Positions 1,138 through 39,633 are shown, counted from the stretch's first letter. The stretch is DNA of 40,517 nucleotides from an uncultured Acidobacteriota bacterium (GCA_964541595.1 CAZIRO010000004.1:1-40517); one strand, 5' to 3'. Notes: generated by a model from the letters alone, not told the origin. Made by a program: numbers and translations.

Positions 1138-1165
1138 ATCATATTGGTTTCCTATCCGTTGTCAA
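1138..1165 (-). promoter_or_regulatory. Predicted sigma70 promoter for the MBL hydrolase
   Basis: TTGACA-16 nt-TATGAT on the minus strand. Confidence 0.6.
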
Positions 1166-1176
1166 AATTTACGACT

Positions 1177-1266
1177 CTGGGATCGGGACAGGCGATGGGA
1201 CATGCGCACCACCGGATCCACCGGTATGCCGGTGGCCATCGGTCCTCCGGTCCCGGGTGTCGGGTC
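1177..1266. mobile_element. Partial MITE-like element (left TIR, arm and GGTNNCR heptamers; no clear right TIR)
   Basis: CTGGGATCGGGACAGGCGATGGGACATGCGCACCA closely matches 34150-34184. Confidence 0.65.
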
Positions 1267-1301
1267 ATCCATGCGCGCGCAGTGCACACGGTATCCGGGC
1301 C

Positions 1302-1310
1302 TGGTATAAT
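1302..1310 (+). promoter_or_regulatory. Extended -10 element upstream of hutU
   Basis: TGGTATAAT; the -35 is weak. Confidence 0.45.
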
Positions 1311-1418
1311 GAACATGGGCTTCCGTGCAACGCCGGGTGATCAGAACCCCGGTGCAACAATTTCTATCGTCCCCGGGGAATTCCATATATCCGCCCCGGG
1401 GCATCAGGAGATGCAACC

Positions 1419-3116
1419 ATGGTGGTTTCCGCATCTGAAACGGTCGCACTCCTCACCCGAAAACCCATTCGTGCACCCCGGGGATCGACCCTGCACTGTA
1501 AAGGTTGGCATCAGGAAGCCGCCCTGCGTATGTTGATAAACAACGTCGATCCCGAGGTGGCCGAAAAACCGGAAGAACTCATTGTCTACGGCGGTACCGG
1601 CAAAGCCGCCCGCAACTGGGCATGTTTTGAGCGGATCATCGCGTGTCTGCTGACGCTCGAAAACGATGAAACCCTGCTCGTCCAGTCCGGCAAACCCGTC
1701 GGTATCTTCCGTACCCATGAACGCGCACCCCGTGTGATCATTGCCAGTTCCCTGCTCGTTCCAAAATGGGCGACCTGGGAACACTTCTGGGAGCTGGAAG
1801 CAAAGGGCCTCATCATGTTCGGTCAGATGACTGCGGGCAGCTGGATCTACATCGGCACACAGGGGATTCTGCAGGGCACATTTGAAACACTGGCCGCCGT
1901 TGCCCGCACCCATTTTGATGGGACACTGCGGGGAAAACTCGTGTTGACCGCCGGCCTCGGCGGAATGGGCGGTGCGCAACCGCTCGCATGCACGATGAAC
2001 GGTGGAGTGATGATCGCGGTCGAAGTCGACCCGGACCGCATTCAACGGCGTATCGCCACCGGATATCTGGATCAATGGACGGACAATCTGGACACCGCCT
2101 TGCGCTGGGCCGAAGACGCCGTCCGGAAAAAAGTCCCCCTGTCTATCGGCCTGCTCGGCAATGCTGCGACGGTCTATCCGGAACTCGTCCGTCGGGGGAT
2201 CATTCCGGACGTGGTCACGGATCAGACCTCGGCGCACGATGCCCTGAACGGCTACGTGCCTGACCAGGTGGCGTACGAAGAAGCCCTTCGACTGCGCCAG
2301 ACGGATCCGGATCGATACGTGCAGATGGCCTATGACGCGATGGTGCGTCACTGCGCGGCAATGGTCGAAATGCATAAACGGGGTGCGGTCGTGTTTGATT
2401 ACGGAAACAACCTGCGTGGCCAGGCACTAAAAGCGGGATTCCGGGACGCCTTCGCATACCCCGGGTTCGTTCAGGCGTATATCCGTCCCATGTTTTGTGA
2501 GGGACGCGGACCGTTTCGCTGGGTTGCGCTTTCCGGTGATCCGGAAGACATCTACAAGACGGACCGGGCCGTGCTCGAGTTGTTCCCGGACGACCCCATC
2601 CTGCATCGATGGATCCCGCTGGCACAACAACGCGTTAAGTTCCAGGGACTCCCCGCGCGGATCTGCTGGCTCGGCTATGGTGAACGTGCGGAATTCGGAC
2701 TCCGCATAAACGAAATGGTACGAAAAGGCGAACTGCGTGCGCCGATCGTGATCGGTCGAGACCACCTGGACGGCGGATCGGTGGCATCACCAAATCGAGA
2801 AACCGAAGGGATGCGCGACGGATCGGACGCGATCGCCGACTGGCCAATCCTGAACGCACTGCTCAATGCCGTCTCCGGTGCATCCTGGGTGGCGGTCCAC
2901 CACGGCGGCGGCGTCGGCATCGGGTACTCCATTCACGCCGGAATGGTCGTCGTCGCCGACGGAACGGATGACGGCGCCTGGCGGGTGGAACACGTCCTGA
3001 CCACGGATCCCGGAACGGCGATCATGCGTCACGCGGATGCGGGATACCCGCGCGCCATTGAAGCCGCGCGTACGAAGGGCGTGCGTATACCCATGCTGGA
3101 CGCGGAAAACGAATGA
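1419..3116 (+). CDS. hutU: Urocanate hydratase
   Basis: [55 protein letters not shown]. Confidence 0.97.
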
Positions 3117-37165: not shown

Positions 37166-38163
37166 CTCGTCAGCAGCACGTACGGGTGTGGAAAAATCGT
37201 GAATAAGTCCCGGGCACGTGGGGTATCCAGTTCGGCATCGAAGTCATCGATGAGGAGACGCAATGGTCTGGCGTGTATTTGCTGGACCAGCCGTGCGATG
37301 GCGCAACCCCATACGGTCAGCAGGGCACGGATCTGCCCTGCGGAGGCGGTATCCCAGAACGATCCATGCGGTCCGAAGACACGCAAATCATCCCGGTGCG
37401 GTCCGACGAGGGAACGGCCGTGCGCCCGTTCCCGGGATGCAAATTTTTCCAACATTTGAAGCACTTCTTCAGGCGAAGGCGGGGACTGTTCCGGGGACCA
37501 GAACGGACTGGTGAGCGCTATTCGGAGCGGTCGTCCCGGAAACAGCCGCACCCACATGCGTGCAATGATTGGACGGACCTGACGCACCAGATACGCGCGC
37601 ATCTCCCAGATCTTTGCCGCCGCCGTGCAGTAGGGCACATCCCAGACGTGTTGCTCTGCGGACGGACTTCCGGATGCCAGGGCGGCATTGCGCTGGTTTC
37701 GGGCCTGGTCAAACCGCTGTAGCCACTTTCGATACTGTGGAAAAATCGTGGACAGGCTTCGGTCCAGAAACTGACGACGATACGACGCGCGCGCGGCGAG
37801 CAGGGGCACCGCACGACCGCCGAGGTATAGCACGGGATTCTGCGCACGCCAGACACTGAATGCGACCGCATGGCCCTGAACAAACAGGCGTGCCGGACCG
37901 TCGCGCGGAATGACGAGTTCCACGGTCTCGAACCGTTCCGACCACTCCACACACACCCGGGCAATCGGGGCGCCTGAACGGATCACCCGGTCTTTGCGGC
38001 GGGTGCGAAACGACCGCCCATGGACCATCCAGTAAAACGCTTCCAGAAGACTGGTTTTTCCGCTTGCATTGGGGCCTACAATAATGGTAAGGGTGTCCTC
38101 CAGTTCAATGTCGACCTGGAGATTCCGGAAATGCTCAATCTTCCATTTCCATCGCGCCGTCAT
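37075..38163 (-). CDS. recF: DNA replication/repair protein RecF
   Basis: FRNL, GPNASGKTSLLEA, GRSFR, RNAAL, GPHRDDL, SAGQ, LIDD..ELD; directly downstream of dnaN. Confidence 0.9.
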   Translation of the reverse strand: MTARWKWKIEHFRNLQVDIELEDTLTIIVGPNASGKTSLLEAFYWMVHGRSFRTRRKDRVIRSGAPIARVCVEWSERFETVELVIPRDGPARLFVQGHAVAFSVWRAQNPVLYLGGRAVPLLAARASYRRQFLDRSLSTIFPQYRKWLQRFDQARNQRNAALASGSPSAEQHVWDVPYCTAAAKIWEMRAYLVRQVRPIIARMWVRLFPGRPLRIALTSPFWSPEQSPPSPEEVLQMLEKFASRERAHGRSLVGPHRDDLRVFGPHGSFWDTASAGQIRALLTVWGCAIARLVQQIHARPLRLLIDDFDAELDTPRARDLFTIFPHPYVLLTSHRKFWLQHAAPHVQRLVIRSGRLYPVSVR

Positions 38164-39355
38164 CGACGAAATCGGCCTCCTTTGGTGCGGCAGCCTCGGA
38201 CGCGCGTTCCGTCTCTTCCACCTGTTCCTCTGCGATAGGCATGTATACGAATGCGAACGTTTCCGTTCGATCCTCGCCGACGGGACGGATCGCCGCCGGT
38301 TCGCGTGTCGATTTGAACCACAGTTCGATTTCGTTCTCATGCACGGCAGACAGAAACTCTACGAGGAATTCGCCATTGACGCAGATGGGAAACGGCTCGC
38401 CCTCGACGAACGCTTCAACCATATCCGTAGCCGTACCCGTGGCCGGATTGTGGAATTTCAATTCCAGCATGCGATCGCGCCATGTCAGCCAGACGGATGG
38501 CGCATGGGCAAGCGGGGTCCCCTTGGCCAGCAAAATGATTCGCCGCACGGATTCCAACAACGCAGCCCGCTGGACCCGCACACGATATGGCGCCGATTCG
38601 GGAATGAAACTCCGAAACTCGGGGAATGTGTCTTCGATCATTCGAATGCTGATCCGCCGGTTGCCGAGATCAAACACAATCAGATTCTGATGCGTACCGA
38701 TCTGCACCGTTTCAATCGCGTCCGCAGCGAGTACATTGCGCAATTCTTGCAGGGCTTTCCGGTGGATCAGCAGGGTAAAGTCTTCCTGTGGTGCACCCTC
38801 TTCCCAGCGGGTCTGGTAATACGCCAGCCGGTAGATATCCATTGCCGCGGCCGCGAGGGTTTCCCCGCGCTTTTCCAGCCACATCCCGAGGAATGCTTCC
38901 CGGAGCGTATGTTTCGGGATGACAAAATCGACCGTATCCATGGCCCTGCGGAGCATCCACCCGGGCAATCGAACGGTATGCTCCGTTTCACCGGGAATCT
39001 GGGGCATGGGATAGTCTTCCGGCGACAGTGCCAACACTTCAAAACAGGTGCGTCCCGCACGGATGACCACCTGCGGCAACGTTTGCAATTCGATCTCGAC
39101 CCGCGTATTGGGAAGTGACTTGACGATGTCGACCAGAATACGCGCGGGCAGTGCGACTTTTCCGGGGGTTTCCACCTGCGCGGGAATCGTGGAGGCATAA
39201 CTGAGTTCCATATCCGAGGCCGTCAGACGTATCTGTTCGGCCTCGGCTTCCAGAAGGAAGTAAGACAGTGTAGGGATCGCCGATTTCCTTTCAATTGCAC
39301 CCTGGATCAGTCGGAGTTCCGTGTGAAACGGTTCCTTTTCGACTGAACAACGCAT
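38135..39355 (-). CDS. dnaN: DNA polymerase III beta clamp
   Basis: IPTLS, ASDME, DYP, DIYRLA, FPEF, VYMP; acidic C-terminal tail. Confidence 0.92.
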   Translation of the reverse strand: MRCSVEKEPFHTELRLIQGAIERKSAIPTLSYFLLEAEAEQIRLTASDMELSYASTIPAQVETPGKVALPARILVDIVKSLPNTRVEIELQTLPQVVIRAGRTCFEVLALSPEDYPMPQIPGETEHTVRLPGWMLRRAMDTVDFVIPKHTLREAFLGMWLEKRGETLAAAAMDIYRLAYYQTRWEEGAPQEDFTLLIHRKALQELRNVLAADAIETVQIGTHQNLIVFDLGNRRISIRMIEDTFPEFRSFIPESAPYRVRVQRAALLESVRRIILLAKGTPLAHAPSVWLTWRDRMLELKFHNPATGTATDMVEAFVEGEPFPICVNGEFLVEFLSAVHENEIELWFKSTREPAAIRPVGEDRTETFAFVYMPIAEEQVEETERASEAAAPKEADFVDDGAMEMED

Positions 39356-39383
39356 GGATCACCTCATTTGCGGTGTTGGCATC

Positions 39384-39412
39384 ATCTTACGCGGGTTGAA
39401 CGTTCTGATCAA
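39384..39412 (-). promoter_or_regulatory. Predicted sigma70 promoter for dnaN-recF
   Basis: TTGATC-17 nt-TAAGAT; palindrome TCTGATCAATCAGA overlaps the -35. Confidence 0.5.
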
Positions 39413-39424
39413 TCAGAGTCGATC

Positions 39425-39633
39425 CTGGGATCGGGACAGGCCATGGGACACCGTGGGTACCCATGCGGTCATGCACTATCCCCAGCCCATGGGATACCCC
39501 GTCCCCTGTCTTCCGTCTCCCGTCCCGGAGACCCGACACCCGGGACCTGAGACCTGACACCCGACACCCGGTGTCGACCGGGCCATCCGCGCATCCGGTG
39601 CATCCCCTGTCCCATTGCCTGTCCCGATCTCCG
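39425..39633. mobile_element. Complete MITE-like element with an approximately 8-bp flanking direct repeat
   Basis: TIRs CTGGGATCGGGACAGGCCATGGGACA / TGTCCCATTGCCTGTCCCGATCTCCG; GTCGATCC at 39418-39425 and 39633-39640 (boundary ambiguous by 1 nt). Confidence 0.82.

Follow-up and report, generated by a model that had tools for sequence, protein, structure and literature searches.

A MITE family probably derived from a divergent IS4-branch insertion sequence and probably inserted by targeting upstream of sigma70-type promoters

The stretch of DNA analysed here (GCA_964541595.1 CAZIRO010000004.1:1-40517; 40,517 nt, hereafter the window) comes from an uncultured Acidobacteriota bacterium and carries several copies of a short element, listed with the neighbouring predicted promoters in Table 1. 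An earlier note had placed five TIR starts (1177, 18221, 20174, 34150 and 39425) in gaps between divergent genes, with outward -35 boxes at 11, 13, 11, 13 and 12 nt. All five starts are correct and a position-weight scan, used to call the window promoters, returned the same gaps. Gene calls confirm that the five gaps are divergent, and Pfam matches identify their borders as MBL-fold/urocanase, IF-3/unnamed protein, tRNA-Pro/ComM-like, adenylosuccinate lyase/Usp and DnaN/PAS; the name amiS given to the gene opposite infC has no Pfam match to support it. A second, independent consensus tool, which requires 9/12 matches, lists three of the five outward promoters (1165, 18207, 20162). Those at 34136 and 39412 are absent from its list because they are weaker and fall under the 9-of-12 rule. 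The position-weight scan also detected rightward promoters adjoining two further tips, 34106 and 39633. The element end at the contig start has no adjoining outward promoter (score 1.8) and faces a gene 3' end, and no right TIR was found for the element at 1177..1266. Between purB and usp, the left copy is bordered by a TSD of 11 nt (33932-33942 / 34107-34117; identity 10/11) and 14 nt (11+3) separate its right tip from the rightward promoter that follows. The usp-ward and purB-ward promoters overlap inside the palindromic 43-nt spacer; the copy to its right holds a 7-nt tandem repeat (CAGGTCC, ~7.7 copies).

Table 1. Element copies and adjoining predicted promoters in the window.
Feature	Position	Strand	Details
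Right end of element cut by contig start	1..40	-	TIR 15-40, tip 40
Predicted promoter TTGACA-N16-TATGAT	1138..1165	-	Toward MBL-fold gene (173-1114); -35-to-tip gap 11 nt
Truncated or solo element	1177..1266	+	Perfect TIR 1177-1202; body recognisable to ~1266
Predicted promoter TTGACA-N17-TAATAT	18179..18207	-	Upstream of infC (IF-3); gap 13 nt
Truncated element	18221..18345	+	TIR 18221-18246, 1 mismatch; right boundary by eye
Predicted promoter TTGCCA-N17-TAATAT	20134..20162	-	For tRNA-Pro (20046-20122); gap 11 nt
Complete element, 185 bp	20174..20358	+	Flanking direct repeat 14 nt, 2 mismatches
Complete element, 164 bp	33943..34106	+	Left TIR degenerate, 5 mismatches
Predicted promoter TTGCAC-N16-TAGAAT	34109..34136	-	Toward purB; gap to TIR 34150 13 nt = TSD 10+3
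Predicted promoter TTGCGT-N16-TACAAT	34121..34148	+	Toward usp
Complete element, 237 bp	34150..34386	+	TSD 10 bp GCATACAATT (34140-34149 / 34387-34396)
Predicted promoter TTGATC-N17-TAAGAT	39384..39412	-	For dnaN; gap 12 nt
Complete element, 209 bp	39425..39633	+	TSD 6 bp TCGATC (39419-39424 / 39634-39639)
Predicted promoter TTGAGG-N17-TAAAGT	39643..39671	+	For PAS-domain gene; gap 9 nt = TSD 6+3

The element is a non-coding MITE of 150-270 bp with a 26-nt TIR (CTGRRATCGGGACAGGCNATGGGACA) and an interior of short G-rich 7-nt repeats. The 2.88 Mb genome has 588 TIR ends, from which 158 copies with a length of 74-399 bp were paired. The TIR boundary is sharp, with the information content at background one base beyond the tip. 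Direct repeats (TSD) of 5-14 bp were found at the junctions of 58 from 153 pairs, 57 of them within 5-12 bp (mode 7-8), while shuffled pairings give an expectation of ~0.5. TIR mismatches number 3.30 in copies without TSD and 2.43 in copies with TSD. The assignment as a MITE is based on the TIRs, the TSDs, the small size, the high copy number, the lack of coding capacity and the ends common with a transposase-bearing (truncated) copy. A search for empty (uninserted) sites of element copies found none and insertion is therefore deduced from the TSDs only. Variation of the TSD length by 6 nt is unusual for DDE transposases.

The association noted in the window holds there and genome-wide. A predicted outward sigma70-type promoter (at least 8 bits) with its -35 box at offset 8-14 adjoins 235 of the 573 flanked ends (41%), compared to 7 and 7 in two control offset windows. 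The promoter matrix consisted of textbook base frequencies and the genes came from a simple in-house caller, the internal controls being independent of both. The -35 offset of the 235 promoter-adjoining ends has its mode at 10-11 nt from the tip. Exact outward TTGACA is found at offsets 7-13 in 42 of the 573 ends versus 2 over offsets 14-73, and there is no enrichment of its inward orientation. The 235 promoter-adjoining flanks are all unique, with no 25-mer in common. Alignment of ends on TTGACA (n=105) revealed TAnaaT exactly 17 nt downstream, even though this was not a selection criterion. No word is enriched nearly as strongly as TTG (offsets 9-13 in 237/573 ends). Because TTGA and TTGC are both enriched and GACA is dispensable, the flanking word represents a -35 box instead of imitating the GGGACA of the TIR.

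The association extends to the -10 box. When sites of like -35 quality are compared, 67-71% of those adjoining an element have a -10 box of at least 4 bits, versus 4-38% of other non-coding sites. Weak -35 boxes adjoining an element have a good -10 box in ~70% of cases, compared to 4-13% elsewhere and to 6-13% for weak boxes that point at gene starts away from elements. Since the -10 box accompanies even weak -35 boxes, entire promoters are the target. Promoter targeting by the element is incomplete: among 148 complete copies, 52 lack a promoter (at least 8 bits) at both ends, as do 25 of the 55 TSD-bearing copies, ~9 of which have a TTG-type hexamer at TSD+3.

Subtraction of the TSD length (5-11 bp) from the -35 offset gives 3 in 28 of 33 cases; the rule is broken in the other five. 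A TSD of variable length that nevertheless ends 3 nt from the -35 box calls for a ruler, beyond selection alone. Within the window, the PAS-gene promoter is the anchored side of element 39425..39633, as its gap equals TSD 6+3, while the dnaN promoter is the non-anchored side because its gap is 12 nt where TSD+3 would be 9. The copy at 20174 is an exception to the rule, since its flanking repeat overlaps the -35 box. Adjacent tip-to-tip pairs spaced by 6-10 nt, which is the TSD length range, account for 15 of 152 pairs, and the layout in resolved repeat-hit cases is element / TSD / element / TSD / 3 nt / -35. Second insertions at an already occupied promoter therefore locate the targeting signal on the promoter side. 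The promoter-adjoining end is the 5' side of the G-rich strand (tip CYGRGATC) in 47 cases versus 19 (p 0.0008). All of this is directly observed: the geometry, the specificity for whole promoters, the multiple hits on single promoters and the bias in orientation.

Of the promoter-adjoining ends, 223 face a gene 5' end and 4 a 3' end, compared to 190 and 128, respectively, among ends without promoter (Fisher p 2e-30). From the tips of the promoter-adjoining ends to the start codon, the median distance is 96 nt. The earlier note held that every copy lies between divergent genes. This is not the case genome-wide, where elements occupy 101 divergent, 116 tandem and 12 convergent gaps. Its stress on divergent regions is justified in that these gaps are enriched (101 of 215 are occupied), but copies are just as numerous in tandem gaps; the enriched class is that of promoter-containing gaps, tandem included. 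Only 6 of 573 TIR ends lie inside called genes. Together with the scarcer copies in convergent gaps, this indicates that purifying selection does act.

A candidate for the parental transposase was found on contig C38, where a 299-aa open frame runs into a perfect TIR (902-927): its stop codon overlaps the inner TIR edge, and no MITE body intervenes. This TIR is flanked by TTGCTT at offset 10, then N17 and TATCAT. Protein P0002 (373 aa) is a full-length relative, 82% identical and with the same terminal residue. The C38 copy is 5'-truncated, as P0002 homology starts at contig nt 53 and the first catalytic D is absent. The best family matches of the C38-type transposase are IS4 NF033591 (E 1e-23) and PF01609. 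The PF01609 score (43 bits) passes its cut-off of 23, whereas NF033591 scores 72-86 bits, with the transposase at 84-86, against a curated cut-off of 152. The transposase falls short of the curated cut-off in every NCBIfam IS4 model, for which reason it is assigned to a divergent branch. The IS4 family is defined, in the relevant passages of De Palmenaer et al. (2008; PMC2266710), by D(60-110)D(100-150)E and Y-(2)-R-(3)-E-(6)-K. In P0002 the triad D90, D171, E267 has spacings of 81, inside the first range, and 96, just short of the second. The residues Y260, R263, E267 and K274 show little or no variation across 14 sequences, and in the C38 fragment this signature reads YLTRMTIEASFRDLK. The CT-ended IS4 subgroups (IS10, IS50, ISPepr1), as far as those passages describe them, are alike in YREK, 5'-CT ends, a single ORF (~373 aa), TSDs in the 7-10 bp range and an inferred IS of ~1.3 kb, and probably in the DDE triad as well. 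The element TSD of 5-12 bp fits the roughly one helical turn of IS4 (7-13 bp by subgroup), although its length varies more than that of any subgroup listed. The known subgroups are described in the review with sequence-defined or AT-rich targets and near-constant TSDs, unlike the present element; the review describes no promoter targeting, and its main text never uses the word "promoter". The IS4 link to the TIR comes from one copy, C38, and no intact autonomous copy with these TIRs was found in the genome. Taken together, the repeats are probably a MITE of a divergent IS4-branch IS, inserted by targeting upstream of sigma70-type promoters.

Insertion at a fixed distance upstream of the sigmaA/sigma70 -35 box is reported for TnGBS, ISLre2 and ISKra4 (p-MULT 3/4) in passages of Guerillot et al. 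(2014; PMC3942029, citing Brochet et al. 2009). There, orientation is tied to IR asymmetry, the IR downstream of the transposase gene being promoter-adjoining, and contact with the RNA polymerase initiation complex is proposed. The present element is alike in its promoter-upstream insertion, in its orientation-IR asymmetry and in having the IR that follows the transposase gene beside the promoter. It differs in the transposase (Mutator-like there, IS4-type DDE with YREK here) and in its geometry: in the same source the -35 box lies 15-17 bp away (13-17 bp in ISKra4) and DRs measure 8-9 bp, against 8-14 bp (mode 10-11) here and a TSD of 5-11 bp whose end is 3 nt from the box. ISs and ICEs make up the published cases, whereas this element is a MITE, a word with zero occurrences in the main text of PMC3942029. 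The element works like the promoter-targeting Mutator-like elements but is very probably no member of them. Correia elements (CREE, Neisseria) and promoter-bearing MITEs, as presented in parts of PMC10969869, are similarly abundant and intergenic, with 26-nt-class TIRs, and lie directly upstream of genes where they affect the promoter neighbourhood. Correia elements carry promoter parts internally, while in the present case the two hexamers belong to host DNA and lie outside the TSD. The insertion-site-preference section of that source mentions no promoter-anchored MITE. The nucleotide-exact spacing also has a eukaryotic counterpart. The yeast elements Ty3 and Ty1 integrate at a nucleotide-exact distance from the transcription initiation complex, a safe haven. 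They differ as retroelements that use an integrase at Pol III gene targets, and the mechanisms are unrelated; Ty3 is named as an analogy in the relevant part of PMC3942029.

In the mechanism that we propose, the non-autonomous MITE would derive from an IS with a DDE transposase of the divergent IS4 branch, whose transposition machinery would capture target DNA directly upstream of sigma70-type promoters. The first strand-transfer joint would be made 3 nt upstream of the -35 hexamer and the second 5-11 nt farther upstream, yielding a target duplication of variable length. The -35, the -10 and one TSD copy would stay intact and the promoter would fire away from the element. Insertion would be tolerated because the promoter is left intact, and this tolerance would have let the family grow to ~590 ends in 2.9 Mb. 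We lean slightly towards the view that the machinery recognises RNA polymerase holoenzyme bound at the promoter (by way of sigma region 4 or alpha-CTD), or the shape given to the DNA by the bound enzyme, and not just the hexamer. Direct reading of promoter DNA by the transposase (-35 alone, both hexamers, or shape), with RNA polymerase unneeded, is rather unlikely. It would agree with the nucleotide-exact anchor point relative to the hexamer, with TTG as the top enriched word and with the TTG hexamers that lack a good -10 box beside ~9 TSD-bearing copies. However, hexamer quality by itself is no predictor of occupancy: thousands of non-coding hexamers of equal quality are vacant, and a -10 box accompanies ~70% of the occupied ones versus 4-13%; reading two hexamers 17 nt apart and a far-side joint would moreover be demanding for a 373-aa transposase.

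The other explanations bear on the placement or on the identity of the transposase. The earlier note had considered, without choosing, guided insertion by promoters or RNA polymerase, a view sustained by the fixed 3-nt joint, the repeat hits, the -10 co-occurrence and the orientation ratio, beside two options that fared worse. Near-random intergenic insertion with survival of the copies that spare the core promoter, to which the rarity of ends in genes and of copies in convergent gaps lends some weight, is very improbable as sole cause: it predicts a minimum distance and not a peak at 10-12 nt that is near-empty past 15, and leaves unexplained TSD+3, the orientation bias and second insertions in the same 6-10 nt. 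Co-option of the TIR (GGGACA-N6-GGGACA) as a regulator site, copies being retained for promoter regulation, is improbable too. The geometry would put the GGGACA repeats ~18-32 nt upstream of the -35, in the class I activator zone, and solo TIRs are slightly oftener promoter-adjoining (62/129 vs 113/306, p 0.03). Yet promoter-side TIRs are not better conserved (1.49 vs 1.55 mismatches), the gap spans 7 nt (8-14) so that helical phase is not fixed, and the TSD ruler accounts for placement without function; a secondary regulatory effect is possible. There is likewise little probability that an ISKra4/ISLre2-type Mutator-like transposase moves the MITE and that the IS4-type gene at the C38 TIR is a coincidence, despite the same behaviour published for p-MULT 3/4 (parts of PMC3942029), ISKra4-family genes in 26/301 genomes of the same phylum, and a MAG that is 94% complete when ISs frequently go unassembled. 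This MAG has no ISKra4, ISLre2 or IS256-type match (NF033572, NF033529, PF00872), the phylum ISKra4 copies have unrelated TIRs (GGGTGCGCGACAT..., GGGCCTGCGACAT...) and 9-bp TSDs, and in C38 the IS4-type protein reaches the TIR with its native C-terminus.

Promoter homing is rare and published so far only for an unrelated transposon group, the Mutator-like one. Published bacterial promoter-anchored transposition concerns one transposase superfamily, for which RNA polymerase contact is still a proposal. The targeted insertion described here departs from it in four useful respects: a probable second, unrelated transposase type, a nucleotide-exact ruler (TSD end + 3 nt = -35 box), hundreds of independent sites in one genome, and second insertions beside a first copy, which provide a natural experiment in which the upstream DNA is irrelevant. 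These features combined render the recognition step directly testable. More tentatively, the IS4 branch may have independently evolved holoenzyme capture, with the MITE saturating ~40% of consensus-like promoters and 47% of divergent gaps in one genome. If so, promoter homing would amount to a safe-haven strategy general among bacterial DNA transposons and reached by convergence, and the genome would serve as a natural chart of active promoters, several hundred in number. For annotation, the tip of a TIR can be used in this genome to predict a promoter at 10-12 nt, with a yield of ~40%. Upstream regulatory DNA is displaced by ~200 bp in ~9% of the genes (223/2431, in-house calls).

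The repeat is bounded sharply by a 26-nt terminal inverted repeat (TIR), CTGRRATCGGGACAGGCNATGGGACA, and in the TIR alignment the information content is at background level one base beyond the tip (the outermost TIR base). A search tolerating at most five mismatches found 588 TIR ends in the 2.88-Mb genome (59.4% G+C), whose assembly is fragmented (294 contigs); the window corresponds to one entire contig, C4, of 40,517 bp. Complete copies, delimited by 158 TIR pairs, are 74-399 bp long, most of them 150-270 bp. A further 272 ends are unpaired and about half of these lie at contig ends, so that assembly probably fails at the repeat. 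The non-coding interior has one G-rich strand and is partly composed of 7-nt tandem units (consensus CAGGTCC / GGTSYCR), found at 34196-34258 of the window and in interiors genome-wide, whose variable copy number explains the length spread of 150-270 bp. The tips are unlike: CYGRGATC stands at the 5′ side of the G-rich strand while the other tip is mostly CTGAAATC. Of 153 pairs, 58 have direct repeats (TSDs) of 5-14 bp adjoining the tips; shuffled pairings give ~0.5. The TIRs are more diverged in copies that have no direct repeat. Its sharp TIRs and flanking direct repeats identify the element as a MITE. An Rfam search of the window returned tRNAs only and no family for the MITE.

The earlier note had placed five copies in the window between divergent genes, each a short gap away from an outward -35 box; sequence check and position-weight scan showed all five coordinates and gaps to be correct. 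An independent consensus scanner lists three of these five promoters, the other two being weaker than its threshold. The flanking genes are divergent, as claimed. Of these ten genes, nine of which encode proteins, eight had been named rightly, tRNA-Pro being confirmed by ARAGORN; the gene called amiS has no Pfam match. Because the earlier note feared ascertainment bias, the whole genome was tested without looking at promoters beforehand, using the 573 TIR ends that have a flank. Of these ends, 42 have an outward exact TTGACA at offsets 7-13 (counted from the tip) and only two have one at offsets 14-73; inward-facing TTGACA shows no enrichment beside the 573 ends. TTG occurs at offsets 9-13 in 237 ends, compared to ~6 per position elsewhere. 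When 105 ends were aligned on TTGACA (at most one mismatch), a T-A-n-a-a-T motif, which had played no part in their choice, appeared exactly 17 nt downstream. A predicted full promoter of at least 8 bits with its -35 box at offsets 8-14 (position-weight matrix with textbook base frequencies) is present at 235 of the 573 ends (41%), against seven and seven in two control windows within the same flanks. None of these 235 flanks has a 25-mer in common with another and they are thus independent loci. The flank hexamer was also considered as a mimic of the GGGACA of the TIR, a reading that was rejected: TTGA and TTGC are enriched in the flanks to the same degree, and GACA is enriched only inside TTGACA.

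Gene context provides an independent check on the predicted promoters, since their prediction is blind to gene orientation. According to our own simple codon-usage caller (2431 genes, 88% coding), the next gene presents its 5′ end to 223 of the 235 ends with a predicted promoter and its 3′ end to four, as against 190 and 128 for ends that have none. At the ends with a promoter, tip and start codon are a median of 96 nt apart. The emphasis initially laid on divergent gaps was justified in part, as 101 of 215 (47%) are occupied, but so are 116 of 1278 tandem gaps (115 of 665 when only those of at least 60 nt are counted) and 12 of 201 convergent ones. Enrichment therefore concerns gaps that hold promoters and not divergence as such. 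A back-to-back pair of -35 boxes was rejected as the target because 14 of 148 complete copies have a promoter at both ends when 20 are predicted under independence; the target is a single promoter.

Three explanations had been put forward for this arrangement: insertion guided by promoters, co-option of the TIR as a regulator site, and survival of only those insertions that spare the promoter. Subtracting the TSD length from the -35 offset gives 3 in 28 of the 33 copies for which a TSD and a promoter are both present, for TSDs of 5-11 bp. The constancy of this difference despite variable TSDs means that one joint is fixed 3 nt upstream of the -35 hexamer while the position of the other varies. 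If promoters were simply kept intact by selection, a minimum distance would be expected rather than such a rule, which speaks against survival as the sole cause. Neighboring elements lie tip to tip 6-10 nt apart in 15 of 152 pairs, and where both flanks of such close pairs are visible the order is element, TSD, element, TSD, 3 nt, -35 box. A promoter whose upstream DNA had already been replaced by a TIR was hit a second time, and the signal accordingly lies in the promoter and not upstream of it. The CYGRGATC end adjoins the promoter 47 times and the other end 19 times (p 0.0008). When the -35 box scores 4-6 bits, 70% of the sites beside an element also have a -10 box of 4 bits or better, versus 4% of non-coding sites elsewhere and 6% of sites pointing at gene starts (71%, 6% and 13%, respectively, for -35 boxes of 6-8 bits); the hexamer alone is not the target. 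These four results (the TSD-plus-3 rule, the repeated hits, the orientation bias and the whole-promoter specificity) argue for aimed insertion and support the first of the three explanations. By a simpler promoter rule (TTGM followed by TAnnnT at 16-18 nt), 132 promoters lie beside an element and 187 others point at genes, so that ~41% of the promoters so defined carry one. Targeting is incomplete: in 52 of the 148 complete copies neither end has a promoter reaching 8 bits, and the same holds for 25 of 55 TSD-bearing copies, although ~9 of these 25 have a TTG hexamer at the TSD length plus 3 nt. A regulatory role for the TIR is possible but unsupported. Among solo TIRs the share beside a promoter is slightly higher (48% vs 37%, p 0.03), yet TIRs beside promoters are no better conserved than others (1.49 vs 1.55 mismatches), and the gap varies over 7 nt, which would make a TIR-bound protein face different sides of the helix.

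Most probably, the element is a MITE derived from an IS on a divergent branch of the IS4 family; the transpososome of that IS would capture the DNA directly upstream of σ70 promoters and place one joint 3 nt from the -35 hexamer. As to how the promoter would be recognized, whole-promoter specificity and re-targeting lead us to lean, by a modest margin over an even chance, towards contact with the promoter-bound holoenzyme or with the DNA shape that it imposes. The main rival for this step, direct read-out of the DNA, appears rather unlikely. Insertion upstream of the -35 box is a behavior already in print for Mutator-like elements: TnGBS, ISLre2 and ISKra4 elements are described as inserting 15-17 bp (13-17 in the ISKra4 group) upstream of the σA -35 box with repeats of 8-9 bp, the authors' proposal being that these elements contact the polymerase (Guerillot et al. 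2014, PMC3942029). The word “promoter” has no occurrence in the main text of the IS4 family review (PMC2266710), and the insertion-preference section of a 2024 review of prokaryotic MITEs (PMC10969869) names no promoter-anchored MITE. ISKra4 copies from two genomes of the same phylum (G278 and G229) differ from the MITE, having ends unrelated to its TIR and 9-bp TSDs. Among the ISKra4-family loci examined (L118, L123-L127), copy L127 has an outward TGTCAA 16 nt away and the TSD of L123 overlaps a TTGACA-N17-TAATCT promoter.

The link to the IS4 family, which is good, comes from one locus only. Contig C38 begins within an open frame of 299 aa closed by a stop codon that overlaps a perfect TIR (902-927) at its inner edge, there being no MITE body between frame and TIR; a promoter-like TTGCTT-N17-TATCAT starts 10 nt past the tip. 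The encoded protein matches PF01609, its best NCBIfam model is IS4 (E 1e-23, below the curated cut-off) and it carries Y(2)R(3)E(6)K, the defining signature of the IS4 family (PMC2266710). Residues D90, D171 and E267 are kept in fourteen aligned relatives. A full-length relative of 373 aa (P0002, 82% identical) stops at the same residue, showing that the TIR follows the native C-terminus. The C38 copy is 5′-truncated, since homology begins only at nt 53 and the copy lacks the first D. In the segment C38:1-927, the opening 52 nt are unrelated, AT-richer DNA that has a 25-mer in common with C118:529-553. The 59 database relatives are protein sequences only, and none with flanking DNA was found in 400 genomes of the phylum, plasmids or viral contigs. 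The MAG holds no intact copy of the IS4-type transposase gene. Other sources were discarded. The three TIR pairs lying 2-3 kb apart enclose ordinary host genes and no autonomous copy. The DDE_Tnp_1 transposase gene of C222 (2276-3277), which lies beside a tRNA-like stretch, has its own inverted ends, GTTGCAAA / TTTGCAAC, unrelated to the MITE. Profile searches of the genome for ISKra4, ISLre2, IS256-type and rve gave no match.

None of the 40 related genomes searched had a match to the TIR pattern, and no empty site was found in these, in the metagenome loci or in the contigs of sequencing runs X1 and X2. The run contigs contain no joint that precisely skips an element, those of X2 being too short to bridge junctions. 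The metagenome scan yielded 110 loci, 108 of which belong to the same population (about 98-100% identity); L011 is an unbinned contig and L004 was dismissed as a chance match within an unrelated low-GC gene. At C16:4158-4367, a scaffold gap (run of N) and a 55-nt duplicated flank surround a MITE end, and this stretch is absent from metagenome contig L099, a difference due either to an assembly artefact or to strain variation. An IS701-like fragment in L041 (1655-2249; N-terminal part of a transposase, NF033540, E 6e-12) lies ~90 nt outside a MITE tip and was rejected as the source because it has no link to the TIR. Absent from the MAG, it belongs to a second IS from the same community, unrelated to the first.

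MITE copies of the window and the promoters associated with them.
Feature	Position	Description
MITE copy	39425-39633	Anchored, by its 6-bp TSD and a gap of 9 nt, to the PAS gene's rightward promoter
dnaN promoter	12 nt off the opposite side of the 39425-39633 copy	Member of a back-to-back pair
Two MITE copies	33943-34386	Flank a palindromic spacer of 43 nt holding two overlapping divergent promoters
MITE copy	20174	Exception: imperfect 14-nt repeat overlaps the -35 box

The paired copies obey the TSD-plus-3 rule toward the promoter that fires at the other copy (TSD 11 and gap 14; TSD 10 and gap 13). Each spacer promoter thus fires toward a MITE and both transcripts must cross one. The spacer at 34108-34149 is a near-perfect palindrome, TATGCGAATTGC...GCAATTCGCATA, with divergent predicted promoters for purB and usp. 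Just past the truncated element at 1177 and upstream of hutU, the consensus tool reports a strong promoter-like site facing right (1283-1310; TGCACA-N16-TATAAT with a TG extension), a possible trace of the right end that this element has lost. A markedly AT-rich stretch of ~175 nt (18346-18520) directly follows the truncated element at 18221 and lies upstream of ORF 18619-19155, the amiS of the earlier note. The ~970 nt at 37166-38134 contain no gene called by our own caller and have long ORFs on both strands.
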